IMG/VR virus record: IMGVR_UViG_3300020045_007641
Coordinates: 1-41,780 of that record
DNA length: 41,780 nt
Reading direction: 5' to 3' (one strand)
DNA from: a virus
Taxonomy: Duplodnaviria > Caudoviricetes
Shown: positions 20,826 through 35,629 of the stretch, piece after piece
Numbering within the stretch: the first letter of the stretch is position 1
Layout of the letters: every line of letters starts with the position of its first letter
Program-made: the position numbers and the translations under genes
Notes under the pieces: generated by a model
Database searches by the model: none
What the model was told of the DNA's origin: nothing
What the model saw: only the letters and a program-made list of their open reading frames with translations

Positions 20826-20842
20826 CTAACAAATAAAAACAG

Positions 20843-21022: not shown

Positions 21023-21023
21023 A

Positions 21024-21767: not shown

Positions 21768-21774
21768 AATTATG

Positions 21775-21804
21775 TTGTGTAATTAAAATAAATTATTATC
21801 TTTG
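21775..21804 (+). promoter_or_regulatory. Bacteroidota sigma70 promoter
   Basis: TTGTGTA then TATCTTTG. Confidence 0.75.
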
Positions 21805-21818
21805 TTAAAAATTAAATT

Positions 21819-22109: not shown

Positions 22110-22111
22110 TC

Positions 22112-22324
22112 ATGGCAAAAGAATTAACTCACATAGTACCACCAATAAGTAACGGATACTTAACAGCCGGAAAAAAATATCCTGTAGTAACTATCATAAG
22201 GAAAGCCAACGCTTTTAAATCTTGGTGTGTAAAAATACTTGATGATTCAGGAGAGGAAATAACAATCGACACAAAAGAAAGCGCACATTTAAACGGCTTA
22301 AGTTGTGGAAAAATATACAGCTAA
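22112..22324 (+). CDS. Hypothetical protein (YLT.GK.Y SH3-like pattern)
   Basis: 70 aa, coupled. Confidence 0.7.
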   Translation: MAKELTHIVPPISNGYLTAGKKYPVVTIIRKANAFKSWCVKILDDSGEEITIDTKESAHLNGLSCGKIYS

Positions 22325-22328
22325 ATGC

Positions 22329-22359
22329 TTGTATATTAACTTAATAAACACTATATTTG
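22329..22359 (+). promoter_or_regulatory. Bacteroidota sigma70 promoter
   Basis: TTGTATA then TATATTTG. Confidence 0.7.
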
Positions 22360-22380
22360 TATAATTAAATAACAAAAACA

Positions 22381-22644
22381 ATGTCACAAAAAATTTATGC
22401 TGTTTCAGAACATTCTAATATGGAACAGCCACAAAGGTATATAGTTACCTCTAACGAGGAATTTATAAAAAACTTTCCTGAGCGTGCAATAAAATCTATA
22501 GAGCCTGCAACAAGGGTTTACAATAGCATAGGCAAAAAAGAAAATGTTTATGTAGGAAAAAGCTTTACCGATGAAATACTTTTTGAAGTATCGGCTGATA
22601 GCGTAAATGTTGAATACCATAATACAAAGTTATGCAAAGGTTAA
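22381..22644 (+). CDS. Hypothetical protein
   Basis: 87 aa after a promoter. Confidence 0.75.
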   Translation: MSQKIYAVSEHSNMEQPQRYIVTSNEEFIKNFPERAIKSIEPATRVYNSIGKKENVYVGKSFTDEILFEVSADSVNVEYHNTKLCKG

Positions 22645-22856
22645 TAGATGTATTAAAACTTATGGGCGTTAAGGAATTAGAACCTATAGACCATTTTGAA
22701 TACTGGGCAAATTTCCCCGATGCGCTTTTACTTGAAAAGTTTTTCATTAACGATAACGGTAAATTAAAAGCCGTTCCTTTTGATGCTATGCTTTATAAGT
22801 TTGAAATACTTAAAGACGGAACAGTAACAGTAGTAAGTAAACATAAAAAAAATTAA
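22632..22856 (+). CDS. Hypothetical protein
   Basis: 74 aa, overlap-coupled. Confidence 0.7.
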   Translation: MQRLIDVLKLMGVKELEPIDHFEYWANFPDALLLEKFFINDNGKLKAVPFDAMLYKFEILKDGTVTVVSKHKKN

Positions 22857-22863
22857 ATTAATC

Positions 22864-23205
22864 ATGCCTAAAAGAAAACGTATTACAAAGAAACAGCTTA
22901 CACTTTCAGAGTTAGTAAGTGAGCAAATATCTAAAATGGCTACGCCTGTAGATGTAGACAAACTTATTGAAAGCCTTATCTTACCAGAAGAACAAAAAGA
23001 GGCGTATAGGGTTAACGGTGTAGATTCTTTCTTAGAGCCGGAACTAACAGGAGAAGGAGATAAAGAATTACTTTTGCTTCAGGAGGTACAGAGTAGGCTT
23101 AACAGGTCTTTATCATTACCGGAGATACTAACCATAGCTAAAGCTTTTAAAGAAAGCTCTTTAATTGGGGTAGTAAACAATGAAGTAATAATTTATCACA
23201 AATAA
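22864..23205 (+). CDS. Hypothetical protein
   Basis: 113 aa, in operon. Confidence 0.72.
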   Translation: MPKRKRITKKQLTLSELVSEQISKMATPVDVDKLIESLILPEEQKEAYRVNGVDSFLEPELTGEGDKELLLLQEVQSRLNRSLSLPEILTIAKAFKESSLIGVVNNEVIIYHK

Positions 23206-23206
23206 A

Positions 23207-23314
23207 ATGATCCCTAAACAATGGGTAGTCATGGGCATAGTAATTGCCTGCCTGCTATTAATAGATATGTTCCGGCACTGGAACGATAACGACAACAACG
23301 GAGGTTTAACATAA
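23207..23314 (+). CDS. Single-TM microprotein (35 aa, MIPKQWVVMGIVIACLLLIDMFRHWNDNDNNGGLT)
   Basis: Below track cutoff; fills the gap; clear hydrophobic helix. Confidence 0.65.
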   Translation: MIPKQWVVMGIVIACLLLIDMFRHWNDNDNNGGLT

Positions 23315-23324
23315 CTTAAATAAA

Positions 23325-23576
23325 ATGAAAAAAGGATATATAGCAGATTTAGTAATTTTTACATTACTTGCTTCATTGGTTATTTATACAGATTACAGTC
23401 TCTCCACTGAGAAGATAATAATTTTATTAATATCTATAATGGTATATAAAACTATTGCTTTCGTGGTAAATAGGAGATTGTATAAAAAAGAGGTTCTAAG
23501 AAAGCAAAAGCTTAAAGACCATATAAGAATGGTCTTAGAACATAATGGAGGTATAACTAAAAACAATATAAGGTAA
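23325..23576 (+). CDS. Small two-TM membrane protein
   Basis: Two hydrophobic segments and a basic tail. Confidence 0.7.
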   Translation: MKKGYIADLVIFTLLASLVIYTDYSLSTEKIIILLISIMVYKTIAFVVNRRLYKKEVLRKQKLKDHIRMVLEHNGGITKNNIR

Positions 23577-23779
23577 TGAGGTTATCGATAATAGTATTAT
23601 TTTTTCTGAGTATGGTAATATACTCGGTTAACAACTTAGATACTTTGCCGCCTATATTAAGCGCAACATTAAAGATTGCAATAACCTTCTTTGTTTTGAA
23701 GCTTATTTACCATGTAGATAAGTATAAAGAATCTATAATAACAGGCAAGAGGTATAACCAGAAACACTACGTTAACTAA
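23576..23779 (+). CDS. Small two-TM membrane protein
   Basis: TAATG-coupled; hydrophobic. Confidence 0.68.
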   Translation: MRLSIIVLFFLSMVIYSVNNLDTLPPILSATLKIAITFFVLKLIYHVDKYKESIITGKRYNQKHYVN

Positions 23780-24105
23780 TGAGCGAAAGATATAAAAATG
23801 CTTTAAGCAGGCATGTAATAAAAAAAAATATTCAGGTTAAGCCAGAAGGCAGACCTATAACGGATTTTGAACCGCCTTTACCTTGTACAGTTGTAGATAA
23901 ATATTTAAAAGATAAAAAAGAAAGTGATTTGCTTTTAGAGGGATATAATAAAAACGAAATGCACCGTAAAATATATTGTGAATCTTTAGTTAGGCTTTAT
24001 GCATCCCCTGAGAAACTTTCTGTAACATTATGCGGTGTAATTAAATTAGCTAAAGATTTAGCCGATGAAGCCGTAAAACAATATAAGCCCTTTATACATG
24101 GATAG
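23779..24105 (+). CDS. Hypothetical protein
   Basis: TAATG-coupled, 108 aa. Confidence 0.7.
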   Translation: MSERYKNALSRHVIKKNIQVKPEGRPITDFEPPLPCTVVDKYLKDKKESDLLLEGYNKNEMHRKIYCESLVRLYASPEKLSVTLCGVIKLAKDLADEAVKQYKPFIHG

Positions 24106-24439
24106 CGAAACGCAATTACTAAAAGCAATGGAGAAACACCTATCCGAATTAAAAATGTATGAGGTGGCTTATGATAAAGAAATAGAGTATATAACAAGCC
24201 CTACAGAATTAAAGGCTAAAGTATCCTATTGCAATTATCAAGGATGGAGCTTAGAAGATTTTGGAGCAAAGCAGGCTAAAATAAAAGAAGTGCCGGATGA
24301 TAAACTGGATTCGATTATAATAGACTGTAACCACAATTATGATGGGTGTGAGCATAACAGGACGTTAAGAGAGATACTAACCTTAGAGAGCAGTATAAGC
24401 AAAGATAATGCAGAATCAGTAGGATACAAAAACATTTAA
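24098..24439 (+). CDS. Hypothetical protein
   Basis: 113 aa, overlap-coupled. Confidence 0.7.
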   Translation: MDSETQLLKAMEKHLSELKMYEVAYDKEIEYITSPTELKAKVSYCNYQGWSLEDFGAKQAKIKEVPDDKLDSIIIDCNHNYDGCEHNRTLREILTLESSISKDNAESVGYKNI

Positions 24440-24442
24440 TAA

Positions 24443-24790
24443 ATGAAAAATTTTTTTAAAAATTATAATGATGTATCTATTTTATTAGGTATATTTGTAG
24501 CCATAATAGTAAGCATAGGCGCACCGTACTATAAAAACCCAGATGTAAGCATAGTCTGCTTAGGAGTAACTTTAAGTATGTTTGCTACTCTTATGATAGA
24601 TGCGTTTAAGTTCAGGAATAATCATAACGAGGTACTAAACGCTAAACTAACGGCTCTGGGAGCTTTACAGGGGTATTACCTGTATGAATACATTATAAGC
24701 CCTGCATTATCTATAATCGCTTCAGCAAGCCTTATGGTAATAGTATTCCGGCTAATGAATTACGAACATAAAAAAACAACAGAAAATTAA
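24443..24790 (+). CDS. Multi-pass membrane protein
   Basis: 115 aa, 3-4 hydrophobic segments. Confidence 0.7.
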   Translation: MKNFFKNYNDVSILLGIFVAIIVSIGAPYYKNPDVSIVCLGVTLSMFATLMIDAFKFRNNHNEVLNAKLTALGALQGYYLYEYIISPALSIIASASLMVIVFRLMNYEHKKTTEN

Positions 24791-24810
24791 TAATTAAATT
24801 ACATTACACA

Positions 24811-25443
24811 ATGGAAAATTCAACAATCATTTTTTTAGCTATTATCGCTCTACTAATTGTAACGATACTAAGGCAGGTACAAAAACAAAAGTACTGGATT
24901 GCAGAGAACAAAAGAGACGATGAAGCTATAAGTAATCAAAGCATTGTTATAAGCAATCTAAGACAGGATAATAAGTTTTTAAATAACTACATTAAAGAAC
25001 TTCAGGAACAAAAAAGGAATGATGCTATAGACGGACAGGCGGCACAGGATGAAGCTTACAACAGGATACAGGAGTTAGAGAAAAAGATTAAAGGAGAAAA
25101 AACTTTATCTACCAGTTTGTATAACTCTAACAGGAAAAAACGAAACAGGATAAAAGAACTACAGAAACAATTAGATTCTAAAGACTTTGATATTAAAGGC
25201 TTAGAAAGCTGGATTGTAAAGATATTAGGTAAAAAAGACTTCCTTAATAGAGAAATAAAAAGACAGCAATGGCAAAACAAAAAGAAGTGGATGCTTCTAC
25301 AGGAGCAAAGAAAAAACAACGAAGTGCTAAGCAAGCAGATAGCGTACCAACAGCTAATACTAAAAAATATACAAGGCCTACAGGAATTAAGTACACGCCC
25401 ATCGAAATTGCGCACTTATTTAATGAGATTACCGAAGCTATAA
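24811..25443 (+). CDS. Membrane-anchored coiled-coil protein
   Basis: N-terminal TM (IIFLAIIALLIVTIL) then heptad-rich sequence; 3' end overlaps TerS. Confidence 0.7.
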   Translation: MENSTIIFLAIIALLIVTILRQVQKQKYWIAENKRDDEAISNQSIVISNLRQDNKFLNNYIKELQEQKRNDAIDGQAAQDEAYNRIQELEKKIKGEKTLSTSLYNSNRKKRNRIKELQKQLDSKDFDIKGLESWIVKILGKKDFLNREIKRQQWQNKKKWMLLQEQRKNNEVLSKQIAYQQLILKNIQGLQELSTRPSKLRTYLMRLPKL

Positions 25444-25886
25444 GCGGTAAGGGTTTAAGTCTTAGAAAAGCTTTAAGGATAACTGAGGTAAGTAGTAGGA
25501 CGTTCTATGAGTGGTTAAACGATGATGCTCCGGTTATGGGTGGAGAGAACCCAGAGAATAATAAATTTACTACAATTGGGGAGCAGAGACAAAAACAATA
25601 CGCTCGGGCGTGCGTGGAGCGAGCAGATGCGATATTTGATGAAACTATAGAGATTGCAGATGATGGTTCTAACGATACCTACGAACTCGAAACTGAAGGC
25701 GGCACTATCATAACTAAAACAGATTACGATGTAATAGCACGCTCTAAATTGCGCGTAGACACTCGTAAATGGATAGTTGCTAAACTAAATCCTAAGAAGT
25801 ACGGAGACAAAGTAGAAACTACCTTAGTAGGAGACGAGGCCCGTCCGGTTATTGTTTCTCTGGGTAGTGGTATAAAACCAGAATAA
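25269..25886 (+). CDS. terS: Terminase small subunit (Sf6/P22-like)
   Basis: KYTP...I...G.SLR...RTFYEW HTH; QYARA...AD..FDE..EIADD; RSKLRVDTRKW..AKLNPKKYGDK. Confidence 0.9.
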   Translation: MAKQKEVDASTGAKKKQRSAKQADSVPTANTKKYTRPTGIKYTPIEIAHLFNEITEAISGKGLSLRKALRITEVSSRTFYEWLNDDAPVMGGENPENNKFTTIGEQRQKQYARACVERADAIFDETIEIADDGSNDTYELETEGGTIITKTDYDVIARSKLRVDTRKWIVAKLNPKKYGDKVETTLVGDEARPVIVSLGSGIKPE

Positions 25887-25906
25887 ATAATTTAAAAACA
25901 AAAAAA

Positions 25907-25990
25907 ATGAAAGATATGGAAAACGGTGTTTATGTTGACAAAGATTCTCAGTTTGAAGATTTAATTAATTATGGTGGTATAGGTGTTTAA
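25907..25990 (+). CDS. Possible 27-aa micropeptide (MKDMENGVYVDKDSQFEDLINYGGIGV)
   Basis: A-rich leader; lies between TerS and the terminator. Confidence 0.35.
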   Translation: MKDMENGVYVDKDSQFEDLINYGGIGV

Positions 25991-26035
25991 AAATACGTTC
26001 ACTCCCTTTATTAAATATAAATCAAAAGCCTGTTC

Positions 26036-26069
26036 AAAAGCAGTATAGTTAATTCTATGCTGCTTTTTT
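26036..26069 (+). terminator. Intrinsic terminator
   Basis: AAAAGCAGTATAG/CTATGCTGCTTTT stem and T-run. Confidence 0.78.
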
Positions 26070-26081
26070 ATTAAAATAAAT

Positions 26082-26112
26082 TTGTGTATTGTAAATAAAA
26101 TAACTACCTTTG
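26082..26112 (+). promoter_or_regulatory. Promoter of the methylase
   Basis: TTGTGTA then TACCTTTG. Confidence 0.75.
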
Positions 26113-26128
26113 ATAAAAATATAAAATT

Positions 26129-26818
26129 ATGTTTTCATATTACGGAACAAAAAAGAGATTAGCGCCTATTTACCCTAAACCTAAACACGGTAAAATAATA
26201 GAGCCTTTTGCAGGAGCAGCGCAATATTCATTATTACATTTTGAAAATGAAGTAACACTTATAGACTCATATAGCGTTATAATTGATATATGGAAGTATT
26301 TACAGCAATGCAGCCCTAATGATATATTAAGCCTACCAAATTACGAAAACAAACAAACTATAGATAAAGACGAATTAGATTGTATAGAGCAGTTTGAATT
26401 AATAAGATTTCTGGTACAGGAAGGAACTGTAGGAGGAAATAAAGCCTATTCAAGAGGTTTAAAGAGTTATGATTCAAAACGGAAGAATATAGCTAATAGT
26501 TTGTTTAAAATAAAACATTGGAAATTTGAATGTAAGTCTTATACAGAAGTAGAGAATGAATTAGCTACTTGGTTTATAGACCCTCCTTATCAGTTTGGGG
26601 GTCATAAATACAAACACTCTAATAAGAAAATAGACTTCGAAGGGTTAGCTGATTATTGTAAAGAAAGACAGGGTTTAGTTATAGTTTGCGAAAATACTAA
26701 AGCTGACTGGTTACCTTTTATTCCTGCAAAAAAACATAAAGGCATTAACAATGATGTAACTATCGAAGCTATTTGGAGCAACGAAGAAATAAAAAATAAA
26801 ACACCAATATTATTTTAA
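26129..26818 (+). CDS. Orphan DNA adenine methyltransferase (D12/Dam-like)
   Basis: SYYGTK, EPFAGAA (SAM-binding) and DPPY (catalytic) motifs. Confidence 0.88.
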   Translation: MFSYYGTKKRLAPIYPKPKHGKIIEPFAGAAQYSLLHFENEVTLIDSYSVIIDIWKYLQQCSPNDILSLPNYENKQTIDKDELDCIEQFELIRFLVQEGTVGGNKAYSRGLKSYDSKRKNIANSLFKIKHWKFECKSYTEVENELATWFIDPPYQFGGHKYKHSNKKIDFEGLADYCKERQGLVIVCENTKADWLPFIPAKKHKGINNDVTIEAIWSNEEIKNKTPILF

Positions 26819-26871
26819 CATAACTTTAACATTAATTACTGTACACAATTAAAATAACAGTTGTATATTTG
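26815..26871 (+). promoter_or_regulatory. Promoter with an upstream TTAACA-N5-TTAACA box
   Basis: TTAACA at 26815 and 26826; TATATTTG at 26864; -33 box degenerate. Confidence 0.65.
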
Positions 26872-26902
26872 TACTCAGATAACAACAATAAAAATATCAA
26901 TC

Positions 26903-27199
26903 ATGCAAGACTTAACAAAATTCACAAAAGGACAAAAAGAAGCAATGCTTAAATCTTTGTTAAATGCAAAATCAAATACAATAGCAGATAATAAATTAAA
27001 ATTTGCTCTTATGGATGATTTAGCTGAAGGAGACAAAACGGCTTCTTTTGGAATTATTGTATGTATGGGTTACGCTAAAATGATAAATATAGATACATTT
27101 GGAGAAGCTTACAGAGAAGTATGGGCTAAAATAAGAACTACAAGTAAAGGAGATTATATAAATAATTCTTATACAGGTGGCAGAATGTATTTGAATTAA
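26903..27199 (+). CDS. Hypothetical protein (likely start 26903, MQDLTKF)
   Basis: The track start lies inside the promoter box. Confidence 0.72.
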   Translation: MQDLTKFTKGQKEAMLKSLLNAKSNTIADNKLKFALMDDLAEGDKTASFGIIVCMGYAKMINIDTFGEAYREVWAKIRTTSKGDYINNSYTGGRMYLN

Positions 27200-27210
27200 A
27201 AAATTAACCC

Positions 27211-27230
27211 GCCTCCTGTAACAGGGAGGC
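27211..27230 (+). other. GC-rich hairpin without a clear T-run (weak terminator or RNA-stabilising)
   Basis: GCCTCC...GGAGGC. Confidence 0.5.
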
Positions 27231-27248
27231 TCTTAAATAAACTGTAAA

Positions 27249-27395
27249 ATGAAAGCAGACTTAACAAAACTTAACAGGTTAGTTATAAAACTAAAAGATG
27301 GAAGCACGATGTATTTAAACGTTGAGGCTGAAATGTTAGAGACTACAGGAACGGGTAAAAACGCAAAATCAAAATTAACTATTAAACAAATATAA
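27249..27395 (+). CDS. Small hypothetical protein (48 aa, MKADLTKLNRLVIKLKDG...)
   Basis: Below track cutoff; stop abuts the next ATG. Confidence 0.65.
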   Translation: MKADLTKLNRLVIKLKDGSTMYLNVEAEMLETTGTGKNAKSKLTIKQI

Positions 27396-27839
27396 ATGAA
27401 TTTAACAGAGTATTCAAAACAGGTACACGAAGCGAATGTAAAGAAAGGTTTTTATGATGAACATGTTAACGTAATATCTGCGTTACAGGATATGCATAAC
27501 AGTACTAAGCCAAACATAATTAAAAGCTATGTAACAGCTTTTATAGACCAAAGGGTTGCGTTAGTACACTCAGAACTTTCTGAAGCCTTAGAAGCTAACA
27601 GGAAAAATTTATATGCCGATTTACATATATTAACAGATTTACCTGCTACACCAACGAATGAATATTTTAAAGAGATTTTTGAATTGCATATTAAAGATAC
27701 TGTAGAAGATGAAATAGCCGATTCTGTTATTAGGCTTTTTGATTTATCCGGCTTTCTGGGAATCGATTTAGAAACTCATGTAAGAGCTAAATTAAGATAC
27801 AACTCTTTAAGACCACAAAAGCACGGCAAACTATATTAA
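27396..27839 (+). CDS. MazG-like nucleotide pyrophosphohydrolase
   Basis: ALVHSELSEALEA.R, EDEIAD.VIRLFDL, KLRYN..RP.KHGK.Y. Confidence 0.85.
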   Translation: MNLTEYSKQVHEANVKKGFYDEHVNVISALQDMHNSTKPNIIKSYVTAFIDQRVALVHSELSEALEANRKNLYADLHILTDLPATPTNEYFKEIFELHIKDTVEDEIADSVIRLFDLSGFLGIDLETHVRAKLRYNSLRPQKHGKLY

Positions 27840-27842
27840 ACC

Positions 27843-27879
27843 AATCCCCTGTTATTAATTTAGCAGGGGATTTTATTTT
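27843..27879 (+). terminator. Intrinsic terminator
   Basis: AATCCCCTGTTA/TAGCAGGGGATT stem and T-rich tail. Confidence 0.78.
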
Positions 27880-27933
27880 AACAAAGTTTTAACATATTTA
27901 ACTTGTGTAATGTAAATTATAATAATATCTTTG
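27878..27933 (+). promoter_or_regulatory. Promoter with an upstream TTAACA-N5-TTAACA box
   Basis: TTAACA at 27878 and 27889; TTGTGTA 27903; TATCTTTG 27926. Confidence 0.78.
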
Positions 27934-27963
27934 CTTCAGTAATAACAACAAAAGATATTTATC

Positions 27964-28608
27964 ATGAACACTTACGCAAAATATACCGCTAACGTTTTTG
28001 TAGCAAAATGTGAAGAACAACACGAAAAAGGAGAAACTATAATAGTAGAAACAAAACACGGTAAAGAAAATGAGTGTATTGTTTTTAACTTAGTTCTTAG
28101 GGGTAAAGATGGTTTTTACTATTACTCTATAGTACGCGCTGACGGATACAATGTACAGGAGAGAGCTAAGGCAAAAGCAGAGCGATACCAACAATGGGCA
28201 GCAAGTGCTGAAACTAAATCAAATTCAGCTTATGAAGCATCAAAAGAAGGGCATGAGTTTTTATCTTTAGGAGAACCTATAAAGGTAGGGCATCATTCAG
28301 AAAAAAGGCATAGAGCATTATTTGAAAGAAACGATAATCGTATGAGAAAATATATAGAGCTTTTAGAGGTTTCAGCCACACACGAAAGTAAAGCAGAGTA
28401 CTGGAACAGAAAAGCAAATGATATTAATTTATCTATGCCGGAAAGCTTAGAATATTATGAATACAAAGTTGAAGAAGCTAAAGAAAAACATGAGGGTTTA
28501 AAGTCCGGTAAGTATCCGCGTGAACATTCTTATTCTTTAACCTATGCTAAAAAGGCAGTTAACGAGGCTGAAAAGAATTTAACTACAGCAAAAAAGCTAT
28601 GGTCTTAA
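27964..28608 (+). CDS. DUF3560-domain protein
   Basis: LGEPIKVGHHSEKRHR signature. Confidence 0.85.
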   Translation: MNTYAKYTANVFVAKCEEQHEKGETIIVETKHGKENECIVFNLVLRGKDGFYYYSIVRADGYNVQERAKAKAERYQQWAASAETKSNSAYEASKEGHEFLSLGEPIKVGHHSEKRHRALFERNDNRMRKYIELLEVSATHESKAEYWNRKANDINLSMPESLEYYEYKVEEAKEKHEGLKSGKYPREHSYSLTYAKKAVNEAEKNLTTAKKLWS

Positions 28609-28612
28609 AACT

Positions 28613-28658
28613 TTAACATAATTTATGTTGTGTAATATAAATAAGCGTTGTATATTTG
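28613..28658 (+). promoter_or_regulatory. Bacteroidota sigma70 promoter
   Basis: TTAACA 28613; TTGTGTA 28628; TATATTTG 28651. Confidence 0.78.
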
Positions 28659-28695
28659 CTACAGATAAAAACAACAACATTAAAATTTAATCATC

Positions 28696-28995
28696 ATGCA
28701 AACAGTAACGCCAACAACATTAGTTAAAAGCCTTAAAGTAGGAGATATTTTACCAAAAAGGACTGAATCCGAAAACATTGCTTATTACAAAGAAAACGGA
28801 TGGGATTGGGAAAACAGAGTAGTATATGGTACTACAGGGTATTCTAAAATAATATCTATAGAAACAACAAAAGCGGGAAGATACAAGATAACGCGAGAAT
28901 ACGAATACACATCTAAAGAAGGAATTAAAGAAATGTGTACTGGTAAATTTTCAAATGGTGCGGTTGTAGGAACTAATTTTGTAGGTTACTGGTAA
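28696..28995 (+). CDS. Hypothetical protein
   Basis: 99 aa after a promoter; followed by a hairpin at 29012-29033. Confidence 0.75.
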   Translation: MQTVTPTTLVKSLKVGDILPKRTESENIAYYKENGWDWENRVVYGTTGYSKIISIETTKAGRYKITREYEYTSKEGIKEMCTGKFSNGAVVGTNFVGYW

Positions 28996-29047
28996 ACTAC
29001 AAAAAACTAACAGCCCTCTTTAACCGGAGGGCTTAATAAAAAATATT

Positions 29048-29308
29048 ATGGAAGGATTAAATTTATTTAGGCATTACGCTTTGTTAGGGTTTGATGTATG
29101 CTTTACTTCATTATGCGGTAAAGATGCTATAAGGATGGTTAAGCGATACAGTTACAAGGCTGAACGCGCTTTGATATGTGAGCAGATAGTAGATACTTCA
29201 GACGATAACCGATTGAAAGAAGTTCTTAACTGGATGCATGATGATATTATACAGCAAGAGGAATCCGGAAAATATCATGAATCATTAGAAACTTATTTAA
29301 ATTCTTAA
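29048..29308 (+). CDS. Hypothetical protein
   Basis: 86 aa. Confidence 0.7.
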   Translation: MEGLNLFRHYALLGFDVCFTSLCGKDAIRMVKRYSYKAERALICEQIVDTSDDNRLKEVLNWMHDDIIQQEESGKYHESLETYLNS

Positions 29309-29318
29309 TTAAATTAAG

Positions 29319-29349
29319 TTGTGTATTTAATTATTTATTATTACCTTTG
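29319..29349 (+). promoter_or_regulatory. Bacteroidota sigma70 promoter
   Basis: TTGTGTA then TACCTTTG. Confidence 0.75.
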
Positions 29350-29368
29350 ATAAAACAAATTTAAAATC

Positions 29369-29698
29369 ATGGAAACAGAATTTACAAAAGAATACTTTAT
29401 AAAAAAGTTTGAAGCCATACCTGAAGATAAATGGTGTGTAGGAGAGTTGACAGCCCCTAATGATAAAGATTGTTATTGCGCTTTAGGTCATTGCGGAGTA
29501 TTAGAAACATCTTCTTTAAATCCTGAAGCAAGAGGCTTAAAAAATCTATTATGGAATTTAAGAGAAAAAATAGATTTTATTCCCTCTCCTGAAGCAGGAA
29601 TAGTATATCAAATAAATGATAACGAAAAACAATTTGGTTCTACACCAAGAGAGAGAATACTTAACGCGCTTAATATGGTTAGTGATGATAACGTATAA
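29369..29698 (+). CDS. Hypothetical protein (KFEAIPE.KW...CALGHCG)
   Basis: 109 aa after a promoter. Confidence 0.75.
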   Translation: METEFTKEYFIKKFEAIPEDKWCVGELTAPNDKDCYCALGHCGVLETSSLNPEARGLKNLLWNLREKIDFIPSPEAGIVYQINDNEKQFGSTPRERILNALNMVSDDNV

Positions 29699-29903
29699 AA
29701 AAAGACCTCACACAAATAAGATAAGCGATATTTGTAATAACACGTTTCAGCCTATAGATGTTTTCTTAGATGGTAAGAACGTAGGTAGGATATTAAAAAT
29801 AGGGCAAACGGAAAAATACGCTTACTATCCTAAAGGCAGCAATACCGGAGGCGACTCGTTTTCAAGTATTGAACTGGTTAAAAAAAGTATAGAAGAATGT
29901 TAG
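29685..29903 (+). CDS. Hypothetical protein (likely start 29685, MITYKKRPH)
   Basis: The shorter start gives a normal 14-nt overlap with the upstream gene. Confidence 0.68.
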   Translation: MITYKKRPHTNKISDICNNTFQPIDVFLDGKNVGRILKIGQTEKYAYYPKGSNTGGDSFSSIELVKKSIEEC

Positions 29904-30130
29904 ATAAAAATATAATCACTACTATGTTGAGGCAAGGTAGTTCGATAAGCGAAATAGCCAGAAAGCTAAACACACGTAAAGAGCGCGTAAGGCGTTTAAT
30001 TAATAAAGATAAGGATTTACTAAGCATAAAGAATAATAACCGCTACGAAGCCTATAAACAGGCTAAAGCGGATATGCAGAAAGAACATTTAATAAGCTAC
30101 TCTTATTTGAGTGCAATGCAAAAAATATAG
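29897..30130 (+). CDS. HTH DNA-binding protein
   Basis: QGSSISEIARKLNTRKERVRRLI. Confidence 0.75.
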   Translation: MLDKNIITTMLRQGSSISEIARKLNTRKERVRRLINKDKDLLSIKNNNRYEAYKQAKADMQKEHLISYSYLSAMQKI

Positions 30131-30132
30131 TT

Positions 30133-30348
30133 ATGGAAACAAAAACTTTAAAGGAGTGGTTAAAATTATTACCTCTATCGGTTAGGCTTAAGTATATGGA
30201 AAACTTAAGGATTCAAAAAAACTTTCATTACTTGAAACAAATATTTGAAAAAGAATTTACAATATCAGCTTCTTTTCTTTGGTTAACCAGTAAAGAAGGT
30301 TTTGAATATTGGAATAAAGTAGAAGATAAATATATTTTAAATAAATAA
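30133..30348 (+). CDS. Hypothetical protein (AF.W....EG..YW-type motif)
   Basis: 71 aa. Confidence 0.72.
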   Translation: METKTLKEWLKLLPLSVRLKYMENLRIQKNFHYLKQIFEKEFTISASFLWLTSKEGFEYWNKVEDKYILNK

Positions 30349-30355
30349 TAAAATT

Positions 30356-30634
30356 ATGTACAGGTTAAAACATATTCCAACAGGCTTATATTATCAACCT
30401 CTTAAACATAGGGGTTCTCATTTATCTAAATCAGGTAAAATTTACCAGACAAACAGTAACGGTATATTTACAGGTTTAAGAGCAGGATTATACTTAAACG
30501 TTTATGCCGCAAAGAATAGCCGGATACAAAAAGATACTTCTAATGTTTTAGAATGGTTAGAGGTTAGTTACGCATCCGGTTACCAAGTTTATGCGAAAAC
30601 ATTAATAACAGATTGGGTTAAAGAAAATATTTAA
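30356..30634 (+). CDS. Hypothetical protein
   Basis: 92 aa, MYRLKHIPTGLYY. Confidence 0.72.
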   Translation: MYRLKHIPTGLYYQPLKHRGSHLSKSGKIYQTNSNGIFTGLRAGLYLNVYAAKNSRIQKDTSNVLEWLEVSYASGYQVYAKTLITDWVKENI

Positions 30635-30654
30635 AAATAAACAATAAAATTATG

Positions 30655-30684
30655 TTGTGTATTAAAAATATATTATTATCTTTG
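30655..30684 (+). promoter_or_regulatory. Bacteroidota sigma70 promoter
   Basis: TTGTGTA then TATCTTTG. Confidence 0.75.
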
Positions 30685-30713
30685 CTAAAGTAAAAAAAAT
30701 TAAAAATTTAATT

Positions 30714-31043
30714 ATGAGTAACATTAATAAATTGCCGGATGATGTAAATCCTATAAAGGCTTATCACGAATTAGCAGAAAAAGGTATACACAATAATCTT
30801 TATAAAGATTGTAGAATTTATTTATATACGCATCCTGAAGAAAAAGAAATAACTCTAATAGATGTTATGAAGCCTGCCTTAGATTTGTACAAAGAAATTT
30901 TAGATTCTATTTTAGTAGACGAAAGATTAATGTATGAAATATTAAACGTAATTAGAATGTACAGCAATGATAATACATTACCTCCAAAAGTTTACGAGCT
31001 TTTAAAAGCGCAAAGAACGGCAAACAAAAAATTAAACAATTAA
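30714..31043 (+). CDS. Hypothetical protein
   Basis: 109 aa after a promoter. Confidence 0.75.
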   Translation: MSNINKLPDDVNPIKAYHELAEKGIHNNLYKDCRIYLYTHPEEKEITLIDVMKPALDLYKEILDSILVDERLMYEILNVIRMYSNDNTLPPKVYELLKAQRTANKKLNN

Positions 31044-31071
31044 AAATAAAATAAAAATAATTTAAATATAG

Positions 31072-31102
31072 TTGTGTAATTAAAATAAATAGATTACATT
31101 TG
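31072..31102 (+). promoter_or_regulatory. Bacteroidota sigma70 promoter
   Basis: TTGTGTA then TACATTTG. Confidence 0.75.
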
Positions 31103-31130
31103 CTATATCAAAATAACAAAACAATTAATT

Positions 31131-31355
31131 ATGAATGCAAAAGAAGCAGCCGCCTTGTCTGATAAAAACCCCTTTACAAGGGTAGACGTAGACGAAAGAA
31201 TTTTAAATCAGGCAAAACAAAAAGGAATTAGAAGTATAATACTTTTTGATATAGTTGTAAGCCAAGATTTGCACACCTCGTTATTTAATGATGGTTATAC
31301 GCTCTCTAACTTTGTTACTCCTGATAACAGGCAGCATTTAAAAATATCTTGGTAA
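31131..31355 (+). CDS. Hypothetical protein (A.EA...G...L...GY...ISW family pattern)
   Basis: 74 aa after a promoter. Confidence 0.75.
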   Translation: MNAKEAAALSDKNPFTRVDVDERILNQAKQKGIRSIILFDIVVSQDLHTSLFNDGYTLSNFVTPDNRQHLKISW

Positions 31356-31520
31356 CTTATTTTAAAGCGATTTAAGAAGCTTTAAAATAAAAGATATATA
31401 AAGTATCCGCTTAAGATAAATTATTCGTTACGCAAGCTTATTATAGTGCTTACAGCCTTATATTAATTACGTATTGAGTTAAAGAGTACAAACATATTGA
31501 AATAAAGTAATAAATATTAC

Positions 31521-31610
31521 ATGACAAGACCCAGACCGCCCACCTATTTTTTAACTGATTTTAAAGATAAAAGATATACCGGAATAATAATAAAAGAATA
31601 TGTATTGTGA
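31521..31610 (+). CDS. Candidate Pro/Arg micro-ORF 1 (MTRPRPPTYFLTDFKDKRYTGIIIKEYVL)
   Basis: A-rich leader; GC-rich Pro/Arg codons in AT-rich DNA. Confidence 0.45.
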   Translation: MTRPRPPTYFLTDFKDKRYTGIIIKEYVL

Positions 31611-31648
31611 AACATCCAAATATTAGAGAAGGCACTTATTTATTTTAA
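31607..31648 (+). CDS. Candidate micro-ORF 2 (GTG start; MKHPNIREGTYLF)
   Basis: GTGA overlap with the stop of ORF 1. Confidence 0.35.
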   Translation: MKHPNIREGTYLF

Positions 31649-31687
31649 ATAGATAAGCTTAGATAGATAAAATATAATATACCCATT

Positions 31688-31753
31688 GTGAAACATATTA
31701 AACTGCCTCCTATGAGAGCTAAACCTAAATTAAAGGGAAGCCTAAACACATAA
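31688..31753 (+). CDS. Candidate micro-ORF 3 (GTG start; MKHIKLPPMRAKPKLKGSLNT)
   Basis: Same ATTGTGAAACAT start context as ORF 2. Confidence 0.38.
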   Translation: MKHIKLPPMRAKPKLKGSLNT

Positions 31754-31776
31754 ATTATAAATCGTAAAAACATAAA

Positions 31777-32142
31777 ATGAAAAACTTTTTTTCTCAAAAG
31801 CTATATGTAAATATCCTAAATGGATTGCATATACCTGTTTTCTTAGCTGTAATTTTCCTGTTATTTAATGCTTATGAAGCTAAAGGAGCTACACCTGAAT
31901 CTTTGCTTTTGTATCCTTCAGCCGGATACGCCTTTTTAGTAGGTTGGCTTTTTAACCTGCTTCAGTTCTTTTTGTCTGGTAATAAGAAAGGCGCGTTAAA
32001 AGAATCTGTATATACAGGTATTGGCGGTATATTTGGCGGTATATTAGCGTATTGGCTCTACAGTTCCGGCTTAGGTTACTGGATGCTTGCGCCTTCGTTA
32101 GCTATATTTGCCTTTACATACTACCTTTGGAAAAAGAAATAA
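31777..32142 (+). CDS. Four-TM membrane protein
   Basis: 121 aa, four hydrophobic segments, GGIFGG motif. Confidence 0.78.
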   Translation: MKNFFSQKLYVNILNGLHIPVFLAVIFLLFNAYEAKGATPESLLLYPSAGYAFLVGWLFNLLQFFLSGNKKGALKESVYTGIGGIFGGILAYWLYSSGLGYWMLAPSLAIFAFTYYLWKKK

Positions 32143-32174
32143 CAATCCGGTTAATGCAGGTTAAAACATAAAAC

Positions 32175-32207
32175 ATGAGAACGCCTCCCATACGCGCTGA
32201 AACTTAA
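32175..32207 (+). CDS. Candidate micro-ORF 4 (MRTPPIRAET)
   Basis: Leader AAAACATAAAAC nearly identical to that of the 31777 gene. Confidence 0.4.
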   Translation: MRTPPIRAET

Positions 32208-32359
32208 AAAGTATACAGCTTAAAGATAAAAGATAAAATATAGATAAAAATAAAATCCTGTGTTTACAGGTTGCTTTAAGGATACTCCTTTAAGTAAATT
32301 AATTTAAAACGTATCAATATGAAGTAAGCCCGTAATAAATTAGTTAGTCTCGTAATGGT

Positions 32360-32394
32360 AAAAAGCTCCTGCATTAAATTGTGGGAGCTTTTTT
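32360..32394 (+). terminator. Intrinsic terminator
   Basis: AAAAAGCTCC/GGAGCTTTTT stem and T-run. Confidence 0.78.
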
Positions 32395-32396
32395 AT

Positions 32397-32453
32397 TTAA
32401 CATAACTTTAACATTTAATTGTGTTGTGTAAATAAAATAGTGTTGTATATTTG
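32397..32453 (+). promoter_or_regulatory. Promoter with an upstream TTAACA-N5-TTAACA box
   Basis: TTAACA at 32397 and 32408; TTGTGTA 32424; TATATTTG 32446. Confidence 0.78.
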
Positions 32454-32478
32454 CTAAACAATTAAAGCAATAGAAATT

Positions 32479-32670
32479 ATGTATAAGCAAATTTATAAAG
32501 GTCAAGAAATAAGCGTTACAAAGGTTTATGACGAAACAGGGAAAACCTATTGGTACTGTCAAGTAAATGGAAACGATGCAAACGACTGGGTATTGCTTAA
32601 AAGAACTGCAATAGCAGCCGCAAAAGAAATGATAGATAACCCTAAAAATTACGGCTTAGAACTGATTTAA
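32479..32670 (+). CDS. Hypothetical protein
   Basis: 63 aa after a promoter. Confidence 0.75.
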   Translation: MYKQIYKGQEISVTKVYDETGKTYWYCQVNGNDANDWVLLKRTAIAAAKEMIDNPKNYGLELI

Positions 32671-32710
32671 CTAACACGGGAGGTTAAAGCTATAATTAAA
32701 ATAAAGTATT

Positions 32711-32839
32711 ATGAAAACAACCAAGTATTACAAAAATATTATTAACTACTTTTTAATAGGGTTTTTAATGTCGTTCTTATTTTTTGCTGTAATATCTTTA
32801 GTGGTAATAGTTGCAGAAATATCAAAGCAAATAAATTAA
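32711..32839 (+). CDS. Single-TM microprotein (42 aa, MKTTKYYKNIINYFLIGFLMSFLFFAVISLVVIV...)
   Basis: Below track cutoff; fills the gap. Confidence 0.6.
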   Translation: MKTTKYYKNIINYFLIGFLMSFLFFAVISLVVIVAEISKQIN

Positions 32840-32855
32840 ACTTTAAATAAACAAA

Positions 32856-33086
32856 ATGGAAAAACACGAAATTATTACAGCGTATATATTAGACAAGATG
32901 TCTGATATAAAACAATTAGCCAACAAGCTAACAGGATTAAAAGGTAAACTTAAGCTTTACATAAAAGAGCCTGTAAGCGATTCAGAATTTACTTTGATAC
33001 GTAGGTATATTGCGAAACATTACAGCCTTACAGGGGACGGCTATACAATTTCTGAAGGTGTAAGCGTTAAACTTGTAAACGAATAG
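32856..33086 (+). CDS. Hypothetical protein
   Basis: 76 aa. Confidence 0.7.
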   Translation: MEKHEIITAYILDKMSDIKQLANKLTGLKGKLKLYIKEPVSDSEFTLIRRYIAKHYSLTGDGYTISEGVSVKLVNE

Positions 33087-33088
33087 TT

Positions 33089-33265
33089 ATGTTAAACACA
33101 GCAGGTAACACGTTACAGCATTATATAGATGTAATAAAATATGTTTGTGGATAATCTTTAACCATAGACGTTATAAAAGCTGCAGCTTTAAGATGTTTTG
33201 AATTAAATTATATTACGTCTCAATGCTTAGATAGGGCTACAGATTTTTTTACTTATGGAAATTAG
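33089..33265 (+). pseudogene. Small gene interrupted by an in-frame TAA at 33152-33154
   Basis: MLNTAGNTLQHYIDVIKYVCG*SLTIDVIKAAALRCFELNYITSQCLDRATDFFTYGN*; spans the gap exactly. Confidence 0.5.
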
Positions 33266-33728
33266 CCAAGCCAAAAAGAAAGAAGGTATAGTTTGCTGTG
33301 CTTATGGCTGCTACTCTAAACCTATCCCTAAAAAAGGGGGTCTATGTCATAAGCACTACAGGAAAAAACGTACTGAAGTAGACCCTGTAGGAGTTCGTTA
33401 CAATGACTTTAAACACGGAGCAAAGAAACGCGGTAAATTCTTTAGCATTAGTATAAAAGAGTTCCGGCAATTCTGCAAAGATACCGGATACCTTCATAAC
33501 GGCTACAGAGGCAAAAGAGCTACGTTAGACAGGATTAAAAACTATTTAGGTTATACAATACCAAACCTGCAAATAATAACAGGCAGAGCCAATATACACA
33601 AGTACTGGAATCACGACAGATACGAAGAACGTCCTGAAGGTTTTGAAGTTCCGGACGAATACTTACAGAAACTTAATGAATTTAAAGAAGCTGTAGAAGG
33701 ATATGAAGAAGGGGATTTACCTTTTTAA
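33255..33728 (+). CDS. Cys-rich HNH-like protein
   Basis: CCAYGC...LCHKHY; TLDRIKNYLGYTIPNLQII...N; ends GDLPF. Confidence 0.7.
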   Translation: MEISQAKKKEGIVCCAYGCYSKPIPKKGGLCHKHYRKKRTEVDPVGVRYNDFKHGAKKRGKFFSISIKEFRQFCKDTGYLHNGYRGKRATLDRIKNYLGYTIPNLQIITGRANIHKYWNHDRYEERPEGFEVPDEYLQKLNEFKEAVEGYEEGDLPF

Positions 33729-33753
33729 GCACTCTTAACGGGGTGCTTTTTTT
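33727..33753 (+). terminator. Intrinsic terminator
   Basis: AAGCACTC/GGGTGCTT stem and T-run. Confidence 0.75.
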
Positions 33754-33763
33754 ATTTTAAATT

Positions 33764-33808
33764 TTAACATTTATTTTATTGTGTATGTAAATTATAATTG
33801 TATATTTG
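33764..33808 (+). promoter_or_regulatory. Bacteroidota sigma70 promoter
   Basis: TTAACA 33764; TTGTGTA 33779; TATATTTG 33801. Confidence 0.75.
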
Positions 33809-33839
33809 CTGTAGAATTAATCACATAAAAATTTACATC

Positions 33840-34001
33840 ATGGTAATAATTTTAAAATTAACAGCAAAAGAGTTATTGGCAATAACTGATACATTAGATA
33901 ATGCTTCTGCTCATATGGGAGAAGATATAAATATTAAACAGGATATAAAAACTATAGACAAGGCTTTATTAAGGAATGGATATAAAAGACAATATAATTA
34001 A
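33840..34001 (+). CDS. Hypothetical protein (likely start 33840, MVIILKLT)
   Basis: The track start lies within the promoter. Confidence 0.7.
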   Translation: MVIILKLTAKELLAITDTLDNASAHMGEDINIKQDIKTIDKALLRNGYKRQYN

Positions 34002-34003
34002 TC

Positions 34004-34123
34004 ATGGTAAACATAAACGTTATAAACGTAAATACAGCATCCGGCAATATAAATATTCAATTGCCTAACCTACAGGTTAACATACAAAACGGTAACGTAA
34101 ACATTAATATAATAAACCTTTAA
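34004..34123 (+). CDS. Asn/Ile/Val-rich uncharged 39-aa microprotein (MVNINVINVNTASGNINIQLPNLQVNIQNGNVNINIINL)
   Basis: Below track cutoff; 2-nt gaps to the genes on both sides. Confidence 0.65.
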   Translation: MVNINVINVNTASGNINIQLPNLQVNIQNGNVNINIINL

Positions 34124-34125
34124 TT

Positions 34126-34329
34126 ATGAAATCAGCATTAACACTACACGAAAAGATTAACGCCCGTTCACAGTTCAGCAGGCACTCTAAGAGGCGTGCT
34201 AAAATACCTTATGATAATAGATTAAGGTATTTAAAAGTTAATGACCCTGAGCAGCCTTATTTCCCACAGGATGAAGCAAACAAAGGTTATAAGAAAACTA
34301 AAGAACAAATATTTAACGGTAAAAGATAA
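34126..34329 (+). CDS. Small basic protein, paralogue A (TLHEKINARS...AKIPY)
   Basis: Similarity to the next ORF. Confidence 0.72.
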   Translation: MKSALTLHEKINARSQFSRHSKRRAKIPYDNRLRYLKVNDPEQPYFPQDEANKGYKKTKEQIFNGKR

Positions 34330-34333
34330 AATT

Positions 34334-34480
34334 ATGACAGTACACGAAAAAATAAATTTGCGCTCATGGTTTCAGCCAAACTATACTAAATTTTTAACTG
34401 CTAAAATACCTTACAATACTCATTTTAAAAATGACTTTTGGGATAATGAAAAATCAAAACCTTTTAAATTGTCAAACTAA
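34334..34480 (+). CDS. Small basic protein, paralogue B (MTVHEKINLRS...AKIPY; likely start 34334)
   Basis: Similarity to the previous ORF defines the start. Confidence 0.72.
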   Translation: MTVHEKINLRSWFQPNYTKFLTAKIPYNTHFKNDFWDNEKSKPFKLSN

Positions 34481-34482
34481 TT

Positions 34483-34710
34483 ATGAAAAAATTATTATTT
34501 ATTGCAGCCTGCTTATCTTTAACGGGCTGCATCCCAGAACCCAGAACGGATATAAAAACCTTTAAATTAAAGGTTGATTATCTAAATGGAAAAACCGATA
34601 CTATAACCTTAGAAGGCTCTGATATATTTCTAAGTGAAGGCAACCTTTATAACGGATTAAGTTTTAAACCTAAAGCCTGTTATGTAACCAGATTTGTAGT
34701 ATTAGACTAA
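34483..34710 (+). CDS. Small lipoprotein
   Basis: MKKLLFIAACLSLTG|C lipobox. Confidence 0.75.
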   Translation: MKKLLFIAACLSLTGCIPEPRTDIKTFKLKVDYLNGKTDTITLEGSDIFLSEGNLYNGLSFKPKACYVTRFVVLD

Positions 34711-34928
34711 TGGCAGGAGAAAAGAAACTAACAGATATGCTTTTAACTACAACCGGATTAGGATACAAAGTAGAATTTGAAAGCACACCAGATACTTTAA
34801 TAGTTAGCATAACCGATAAAGACCATAAAGAAATTACAGATACACGGGCGTTAATTAAAGCGCGTGTTACTGAAGCCAGAATAGTACAAGGTTTAAAATA
34901 TTTAATTCACGATTTAAAAGGGGAGTAA
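34710..34928 (+). CDS. Hypothetical protein
   Basis: TAATG-coupled. Confidence 0.72.
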   Translation: MAGEKKLTDMLLTTTGLGYKVEFESTPDTLIVSITDKDHKEITDTRALIKARVTEARIVQGLKYLIHDLKGE

Positions 34929-35140
34929 TGAAATACAAAGTAATAATAAAAAAGTTTCCTGAAACAGAAGAACGTTCTTCATATAGAACTAATGATTTTT
35001 TAGCCGCAAATTATTATATATCTAATGCTTTAGATAATCCTTTAGGTAATAATTACATAGCAAAAAAAGTAGATAAACCTTCAGCCGGATTTTATGCAGA
35101 GGTTTACGAGAACAACGAAATATTTATGTATATACAATAA
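34928..35140 (+). CDS. Hypothetical protein
   Basis: TAATG-coupled. Confidence 0.72.
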   Translation: MKYKVIIKKFPETEERSSYRTNDFLAANYYISNALDNPLGNNYIAKKVDKPSAGFYAEVYENNEIFMYIQ

Positions 35141-35161
35141 GCTCCTAACGGGGCTTTTTTT
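35139..35161 (+). terminator. Intrinsic terminator
   Basis: AAGCTCC-TAAC-GGGGCTT and T-run. Confidence 0.7.
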
Positions 35162-35185
35162 ATTTGTTAAAATTAAATATTTTTA

Positions 35186-35215
35186 TTCTGTATTAAAATA
35201 ATAGTTTTATATTTG
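35186..35215 (+). promoter_or_regulatory. Bacteroidota sigma70 promoter
   Basis: TTCTGTA then TATATTTG. Confidence 0.65.
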
Positions 35216-35245: not shown

Positions 35246-35371
35246 ATGGCTGCTAAAATAACAAAATGTAAAGATTGCGGTAAAGATATTAAAACAAATA
35301 CCTTTAAGCTTAATGGTAAAAAATGAGTATTTGTAGAAAAAGAATGTATATGTGATTTAAAAAATAAAAAA
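35246..35371 (+). pseudogene. Zinc-ribbon-like segment split by an in-frame TGA (35324-35326), in frame with ORF 35372
   Basis: MAAKITKCKDCGKDIKTNTFKLNGKK*VFVEKECICDLKNKK-MHPNY. Confidence 0.55.
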
Positions 35372-35629
35372 ATGCATCCTAATTATTCTAAACGTCAAAT
35401 ACTAATTAGATTTAATATTAAACTTAACGCTCCTGCTTCAGTAGACGCTAACGGTAATAAAATAAAATCAGTTAGCCATTCGTCAGATATATCCGGATTT
35501 TATAAATATATTAATGATGATGCTTTAGCAAATGATATTATTAATAAGGCTATGAAAAGCAAGAACCAGATTTACCACAGAAAACTAATAAGAGGCTCTA
35601 TAATACGTTTTTATAATAGAATGGGATAA
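35372..35629 (+). CDS. Hypothetical basic protein
   Basis: 85 aa; last gene of the plus arm. Confidence 0.68.
   Translation: MHPNYSKRQILIRFNIKLNAPASVDANGNKIKSVSHSSDISGFYKYINDDALANDIINKAMKSKNQIYHRKLIRGSIIRFYNRMG

Follow-up and report, generated by a model that had tools for sequence, protein, structure and literature searches.

The 39-codon frame at positions 34004-34123 (+) of the window, i.e. the whole 41,780-base stretch of phage DNA analysed here, is very probably a real gene. Its product, a charge-free Asn/Ile/Val microprotein, might be an accessory decoy for a host Bell-Lamassu defence, co-assembling with its amyloid-signal-like tails. From sequence comparisons, this reading is given a rough probability of 0.3. 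Translation of the frame is highly probable, and it is rather probable that the peptide forms a beta-polymer.

The virus record is complete, with direct terminal repeats at its ends. The best matches of its terminase among 20 matching phage records are Cellulophaga phage phi10:1 (62.6%) and Flavobacterium phage 11b (55.7%). The terminase is also close to prophages of Flavobacterium and its kin (44 loci), and no relative above 68% was found in viral contigs. By terminase kinship, the phage is of a Flavobacteriaceae type. On the + strand from about 20 kb to 35.6 kb, units of small genes stand in a row, each downstream of a promoter-like TTGTG...TAnnTTTG pair; TAnnTTTG is taken here as the Bacteroidota-type promoter consensus. 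At least 13 such sites are present at 20796-35215, and near-identical terminator hairpins precede several of them. Judged by sequence, these sites split the arm into swappable small-gene cassettes, and modules recur in a related phage, L004. The micro-ORF is the second gene of one unit, which comprises a promoter (33779-33808), ORFs of 53, 39, 67, 48, 75, 72 and 70 aa and a terminator (35139-35156):

33255-33728 (+): HNH/endonuclease-like gene of the upstream unit, with a PHROG endonuclease match
33727-33748 (+): intrinsic-terminator-like hairpin 3' of the HNH/endonuclease-like gene, end of the upstream unit
33779-33808 (+): Bacteroidota-type promoter, TTGTGT at 33779-33784 and TATATTTG at 33801-33808; the same pair stands before many clusters of the arm
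33840-34001 (+): upstream 53-aa ORF, PHROG 21778, with relatives in Cellulophaga phages phi13:1, phiST and phi19:2 (39-44% identity)
33984-34003 (+): A-rich sequence before the micro-ORF, scored as its translation-start context (4.54) and overlapping the stop codon of the upstream ORF
34004-34123 (+): 39-aa Asn/Ile/Val micro-ORF, by translation, composition and start context
34019-34057 (+): residues 6-18, pseudo-repeat 1; matches the host Bell-type tail in its second half without gaps; score 28.5
34073-34111 (+): residues 24-36, pseudo-repeat 2; matches the host Bell-type tail in its second half without gaps; score 33.9
34126-34329 (+): downstream basic ORF of 67 aa, without a family match
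34334-35140 (+): four more small cassette ORFs of 48, 75, 72 and 70 aa; in phage L004, a relative of the 72-aa ORF (41%) occupies the corresponding position
35139-35156 (+): intrinsic-terminator-like hairpin, end of the cassette, kept in L004

Phage L004 keeps the upstream endonuclease gene, the promoter, the later gene (41%) and the terminator. The genes after its promoter differ, as expected for swappable accessory genes within the same promoter/terminator frame, and the micro-ORF peptide was not found in its record. For the ORFs flanking the micro-ORF, Pfam, PADLOC and NCBIfam gave no defence match.

Several lines of evidence argue that the micro-ORF is a gene. With the upstream stop codon ending at 34001 and the next ATG beginning at 34126, there is a gap of exactly 2 nt on each side, as claimed in the original prediction. 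On a matrix built from 45 phage genes and compared leave-one-out, the start context scores 4.54; 2.05% of 1,071 other ATGs reach this value, which exceeds that of 60% of the 45 genes. The overlapping rival ATG at 33976 scores -9.6. The frame had been called unannotated, and indeed the protein collection contains its two neighbours (53 aa and 67 aa) but not this exact peptide. In sequencing run X1, the one run listed as carrying the sequence, a 151-base contig (depth 3.5) is identical to 34011-34129 (119 bases) and continues with 32 letters unlike the window, the break falling exactly at the next start codon; these 32 letters were not found anywhere in the window. Because an identical copy adjoins different downstream DNA, this contig suggests that the micro-ORF is a unit moving between gene orders. 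The copy is a single low-depth contig in a run located through this very identity, and as it is identical at synonymous sites, too, it gives no measure of selection. Five other X1 pieces related to the window differ at 5-19% of sites, and the X1 pieces may stem from different phages. The ORFs flanking the micro-ORF are without coverage in X1, which proves nothing, and no RNA datasets are among the sequencing runs listed as carrying the sequence. Taken together, start context, composition beyond that of shuffles (see below) and the behaviour of the promoter-terminator cassette support the claim of a real gene, and we infer that it is expressed early in infection.

X1 pieces have loose ends at window positions 33847 and 34129: precisely at start codons, related DNA passes into different downstream sequence, once after the promoter and, separately, once after the micro-ORF. 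The end at 34129 could begin a gene whose first residues resemble phi13:1 gp087 (L186:2108-2266), a weak, post hoc pattern. Gp087 is the upstream neighbour of the relative of the 53-aa gene.

The peptide is composed of 13 N, 8 I, 5 V, 3 L, 3 Q and 2 G as well as one each of M, T, A, S and P, and lacks D, E, K, R, H, F, W and Y. This agrees with the earlier count of 13 Asn, 16 Ile/Val/Leu, 3 Gln and no charged or aromatic residue. In dinucleotide shuffles of the ORF, 3,255 of 100,000 stay open. These contain at least 4 charged or aromatic residues (0 observed) and at most 23 N+I+V+Q (29 observed). Among 1,071,863 39-residue windows of the collected loci, the maximum in low-charge windows is 21. 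The composition of the peptide is far beyond chance. The proposed alternation of polar and hydrophobic residues is present, but with 26 of 38 steps it is only modestly non-random (1,739 of 100,000 residue shuffles reach it). The two 13-residue repeats are identical in 5 residues, three of which use different codons, and share 20 of 39 bases; the internal repeat lies at the protein level, not at the DNA level. A single-sequence model of the peptide has strands at residues 16-20, 23-28 and 31-36 (mean pLDDT 73), and fold searches with this model yielded no match under E 1.

The RHIM core is (I/V)-Q-(I/V/L/C)-G. It is missing in the peptide, as originally stated, and no RHIM family is among the Pfam matches up to E 1. 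The curlin repeat, Q-x-G-x-x-N-x-(A/I/V)-x-(I/V)-x-Q, is accompanied by a signal peptide. Curlin was rejected: the repeat pattern is absent, and with a best 19-residue hydropathy of 0.52 the peptide has no hydrophobic leader. Likewise, membership in the toastrack family DUF4097 (PF13349) was discarded, as the score (E 0.019, 14.8 bits) lies under the Pfam cut-off of 22.9 and only 29 residues of the 247-position domain are aligned. The strand-Gly-turn-strand repeats of DUF4097 and of the gp5/VgrG-type spike beta-helix are like those of the peptide, which also gives weak scores with the R2 pyocin spike (E 1.4) and with a period-16 pattern in long viral proteins; yet, these repeats are domains of long, charged proteins, unlike the peptide.

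BASS motifs comprise about 25 residues, are enriched in Q, N, G, V and I and have beta propensity, according to the part of 10.1101/2020.01.06.895854 considered here. With 31 of 39 residues being N, I, V, Q or G and three strands in the model, the peptide agrees with this composition, and it shares the short Q/N/G/V/I-rich strand-turn pattern with BASS1-10, the Bell/NLR pairs of that paper and C02 of PMC8086366, as far as the portions of both sources covered extend. In contrast to BASS motifs, which occupy an effector C-terminus or the N-terminus of an adjacent sensor, it is a stand-alone 39-aa phage gene without effector or sensor domain and without partner gene. It also lacks the first motif half and all charged residues, and contains Leu-Pro, residues depleted in BASS in the same portion of 10.1101/2020.01.06.895854. 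Only the second half of the Bacteroidota tail matches; the whole motif is reached by 278 and 766 of 2,000 shuffles. Other BASS families were compared by eye, in part of the PMC8086366 data. The HRAM prion-forming domain has two pseudo-repeats with a 6-15-residue Gly/Pro-rich loop between them, and some BASS and HRAM effectors have two pseudo-repeats, as the peptide does (10.1101/2020.01.06.895854, sections covered). In the peptide, two 13-residue repeats are joined by a 5-residue, Pro-containing link, and there is no Pfam match to the HET-s family. Thus, of the beta-arch or amyloid character originally proposed, the BASS-like composition and the three-strand model fit, whereas RHIM core, BASS placement and a full-length match are missing. 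By sequence, the peptide appears not to be a member of RHIM, curlin, HRAM or BASS; possibly, it works like a viral amyloid decoy.

The original prediction proposed tblastn against phages, which returned no homologue; together, tblastn and blastn in phages and plasmids revealed no stand-alone relative. Among 5.8 billion proteins of similar length and longer, 48 candidates were obtained, none at E 1. With phmmer against 1.84 billion representatives, all 17 matches were long repeat proteins of 423-6,182 aa, which we take to be AHNAK-like. The ESM Atlas provided no usable match and the PDB sequences no stand-alone relative. Degenerate DNA patterns matched 3, 55, 2, 0, 0 and 0 stretches in viral contigs, those inspected lying within long frames, and found no stand-alone relative in genomes and metagenomes. 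The 5,923 small ORFs of terminase-linked loci included no relative. In whole genomes, matches in 1 of 401 Flavobacterium (E 0.01) and 4 of 401 Flavobacteriaceae (E 0.05) are at chance level and inside long frames; the peptide is present in 0 of 5 and 0 of 5 records scanned, and the pattern of its own motif in 0 of 301 genomes. The matches obtained are long beta-repeat proteins that the peptide resembles in pattern. No longer protein containing the peptide was found, which is weak evidence, and the collections searched may lack the window's own genome and very close ones.

A candidate host target is suggested by the portion of the PMC8086366 data file considered, where a small group in BASS cluster C02, which we infer to be BASS2, shares six residues with the peptide. 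A pattern for this group occurs in 1 of 241 Flavobacterium genomes, and the reversed control also in 1. The Flavobacterium match ends a 118-aa gene (L282:1210-1566), the product of which starts with MEPIT; a MEPIS motif is described for Bell-type proteins in the part of 10.1101/2024.11.07.622273 covered. The gene directly 3' encodes a product with a like motif at its N-terminus and CTD9, and is followed by MC5/LmuC and LmuB. By sequence, this gene row is a Lamassu operon, and the CTD9 (LmuA-type) partner of the 118-aa protein has no enzyme domain. The gene order of the four-gene locus (L282:1210-3035 / L283:9710-13089) was seen at this one locus only.

From 155 candidates, 113 relatives of the 118-aa protein were obtained, with those named coming from Flavobacterium, Chryseobacterium, Massilibacteroides, Bacteroides and Ornithobacterium; the Bell-type gene is present in only 1 of 246 Flavobacterium genomes sampled. 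In an alignment of 72 of the 113 proteins, the tail holds 5 of 11 invariant columns, and near-identical tails are found in the BASS training set of PMC8086366, as far as its data were covered. The N-terminus of the partner matches the tail profile (0 and 6 of 2,000 shuffles reach it). MEPIT start, small helical domain and a C-terminal motif shared with the next gene correspond to a Bell domain protein. The model of the 118-aa product has four helices and a low-confidence tail. A Foldseek search gave no match under E 2.6, i.e. the Bell/HeLo fold is not confirmed structurally, and the plant resistosome chain 6j5t_G (Z 5.9, rmsd 3.2, 73 aligned) is tied with unrelated helical bundles. Judged by these features, the Bell-type protein is likely a cell-death protein, and the locus resembles a Lamassu system that is coupled to a pore effector through amyloid templating. 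LmuA, once released, oligomerises through its C-terminal domain (10.1101/2025.04.02.646746, part covered), so that a seed-and-template relay as in Bab/Agp can reasonably be supposed. In the sections of 10.1101/2020.01.06.895854 considered, a Bell protein of Flavobacterium aquidurense is shown and a few pairs are stated to occur in Bacteroidetes. The original prediction pointed to NLR-like loci. At 60 loci from NB-ARC/NACHT searches in Flavobacteriaceae, no like motif was detected at the protein termini; the best of 236 is reached by 4 of 100 shuffles and is not a motif, and the set also included ABC and helicase ATPases. A plausible host target for a decoy exists, but the Bell-type gene is paired with Lamassu and not with an NLR.

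How closely does the peptide resemble this tail? The tail profile was made from the 113 proteins, 108 of which have the core in their last 32 residues (5 dropped), yielding 103 distinct tails. Residues 6-18 and 24-36 align ungapped to its last 13 columns with scores of 28.5 and 33.9, both well under the median of the host tails (18.3-53.2, median 48.5). They are the best two of 34,985 13-mers in the six frames of the phage. Scored as a pair, the two copies are equalled by 0 of 5,000 composition shuffles; among shuffles preserving the hydrophobic pattern, 23 of 5,000 attain this two-copy score. Across 221 loci, 3 of 2,076,243 13-mers reach the 28.5 of the weaker copy, one of them being the host tail itself, and none occurs in pairs. 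A high-scoring 13-mer in phage L006 was dismissed, as it sits inside a 412-aa protein. Taken alone, repeat 1 is equalled by 7 composition and 146 pattern-keeping shuffles of 5,000 each and repeat 2 by 4 and 107, where the score of repeat 2 is not independent because this repeat guided the choice of the tail family. The family was picked post hoc, after the six-residue match had been seen in the portion of the PMC8086366 supplement covered.

Repeat 1 keeps N and G of the invariant positions without the Qs, and repeat 2 keeps Q-x-N-I-Q with the glycine two places early; neither keeps all invariant residues of the host tail. The first half of the host motif, including the invariant Q and K, is missing from the peptide (1,918 and 1,718 of 2,000 shuffles do as well), and the N-terminal motif of the partner is not matched (1,736 of 2,000). 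An HMM without composition correction is satisfied by 4 and 12 of 2,000 shuffles. HMMER with composition correction gives a negative score (40 and 67 of 2,000), and the ORF is outside the top 6 of 686 six-frame segments. Compared pairwise with the 103 tails, the peptide obtains an unremarkable best score, which 91 and 170 of 300 shuffles reach. A control profile of viral beta-helix repeats, chosen with a peptide-derived pattern, also fits (20 and 4 of 2,000). The likeness between peptide and tail thus appears real as a strand-turn pattern, and is suggestive, not specific. For the proposed decoy function this means that half of the Bell-type tail is matched twice, but that the match is partial, post hoc and not significant pairwise. 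Mimicry of PspC tails was rejected: a profile of 27 usable tails out of 30 fits the peptide worse than shuffles (804 and 994 of 1,000). In loci L192-L221, most PspC-domain proteins of Flavobacterium (40 of 41 genomes) have a C-terminus of CxxC followed by one or two conserved beta-hairpin-like repeats.

The decoy might act as follows. The peptide would be made early in infection from the promoter-terminator cassette, and its short beta strands would stack cross-beta by Asn ladders and Ile/Val zippers without opposing charge. In the host, released, oligomerising LmuA would nucleate its own N-terminal motif and template the Bell tail, as Bab/Agp and the oligomerisation of LmuA suggest by analogy. 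With the strand pattern and half of the motif, which matches the second half of Bacteroidota Bell-type tails ungapped twice, but no effector domain, the peptide would cap or sequester the seed and the cell would survive. This specific form, two half-copies of the Bacteroidota tag placed between Lamassu sensor and Bell-type pore effector, is more tentative than the decoy reading as such. Amyloid signalling operates in anti-phage defence: Bab/Agp (BASS11) shows that a genuine anti-phage signal can pass to a Bell effector by amyloid templating (10.1101/2024.11.07.622273, part covered), and a phage could gain from jamming it. Bab/Agp is an E. coli host system, and the passages of that paper covered mention no phage inhibitor. 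Herpesviruses deploy decoy amyloids (PMC13506858, part covered): the viral motif of MCMV M45, HSV ICP6/ICP10 and VZV ORF20 co-assembles with the host amyloid and blocks death signalling (PMC13506858 and PMC10072076, parts covered), a mode like that proposed for the peptide. However, those decoys carry a true RHIM on a large protein, the bulk of which aids inhibition, whereas the peptide has neither RHIM core nor extra domain. The literature searched, with most subscription papers outside its scope, contained no description of a phage amyloid decoy or counter-measure to amyloid signalling, and none of a Bell-type gene motif-coupled to Lamassu.

About as likely as the decoy is a self-assembling or beta-sheet-adding microprotein with another target, which would bind an exposed beta edge of a host or phage protein during takeover. 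Its likeness to the tail would then reflect convergence of Asn/Ile/Gly beta repeats. The gene evidence (X1 copy, start context, composition, cassette) is the same for both readings, the three-strand model suits this one, and like repeats occur in unrelated beta-rich proteins, namely the long repeat proteins, viral beta-helices, one PspC-type tail and DUF4097 (E 0.019). On the other hand, the analysis turned up no target of this kind, shuffles outdo the peptide on the PspC-tail profile and the fold searches remained without a match under E 1. A less probable reading is a translated but dispensable orphan, either a remnant of a beta-helix or toastrack repeat gene or a young gene from AT-rich DNA, which is carried with the cassette without a selected function. 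No homologue was found in any collection searched, the DUF4097 resemblance is weak, Asn and Ile codons are cheapest in AT-rich DNA, and the cassette is full of orphan genes. Yet, none of the 3,255 open shuffles shows the total loss of Lys, Tyr, Phe and the other residues with AT-rich codons, and a repeat at the protein level, an identical copy beside other downstream DNA that suggests movement as a unit and, weakly, the failure to find a longer protein containing the peptide also speak against an orphan.

It is improbable that the stretch is not a protein gene at all, but a spacer or a DNA or RNA element such as binding sites, a template repeat or a structured RNA. Gene callers missed it, the X1 copy is unchanged even at synonymous sites, and AAC is somewhat over-used for Asn (9 of 13 codons, compared to 224 of 637 in 45 phage genes, p=0.013). 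Nucleotide repeats alone, named at the outset as an explanation that would undo the prediction, do not account for it: no tandem repeat overlaps the micro-ORF, and the 13-residue repeats share little over half of their bases. A template repeat of a diversity-generating type was discarded, since no adenine-variable copy exists (the best other place has at most 74% of the non-A bases in 40-base pieces) and no reverse transcriptase is among the 58 proteins scanned with PHROGs. There is no Rfam match, and an RNA folding z of -1.78 does not indicate a strong fold. Moreover, the good start context and the exact fit between the neighbours argue against a non-coding element. Least probable is that the peptide is a trigger, seeding the host Bell tail and killing or priming the cell, e.g. 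against competing phages. A free amyloid motif can convert and activate an effector in Bab/Agp and HET-s (10.1101/2024.11.07.622273, part covered), and the half-match to the Bell tail serves a trigger as well as a decoy. However, this match is partial, and from a promoter-proximal cassette of the replicative arm, host killing would presumably cost the phage.

If the decoy reading is true, the peptide would be a phage counterpart of herpesvirus RHIM decoys aimed at amyloid-coupled Lamassu. That amyloid signalling drives anti-phage cell death is a recent finding. Synthesis of a 39-residue peptide and its assay against a defined host motif take only days, so that phage jamming of prion-like immune signals is open to direct test. 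Should the decoy idea fail, there would still be an unusual phage microprotein, charge-free, polymer-prone and overlooked by gene callers, and the motif coupling of a Bell-type gene to Lamassu offers a testable lead independent of the peptide.

Further observations concern the rest of the phage. Two neighbouring ORFs share a T-x-H-E-K-I-N-x-R-S start, encoded at 34126-34175 and 34334-34380, a partial DNA-level duplication. A short Cys-containing ORF with an early stop is located at 35246-35326, and more Cys residues follow in another frame before an 85-aa ORF; the region 35246-35629 may be a broken zinc-finger gene. Two early-arm ORFs (34483-34710 and 21024-21767) encode lipoprotein-type leaders, a hydrophobic stretch with Cys at its end, and their products are possible exclusion or envelope proteins. 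At 16783-16868, short tandem repeats and an A/G-rich run lie within a 235-aa gene of the replication region, and this is likely the replication origin.
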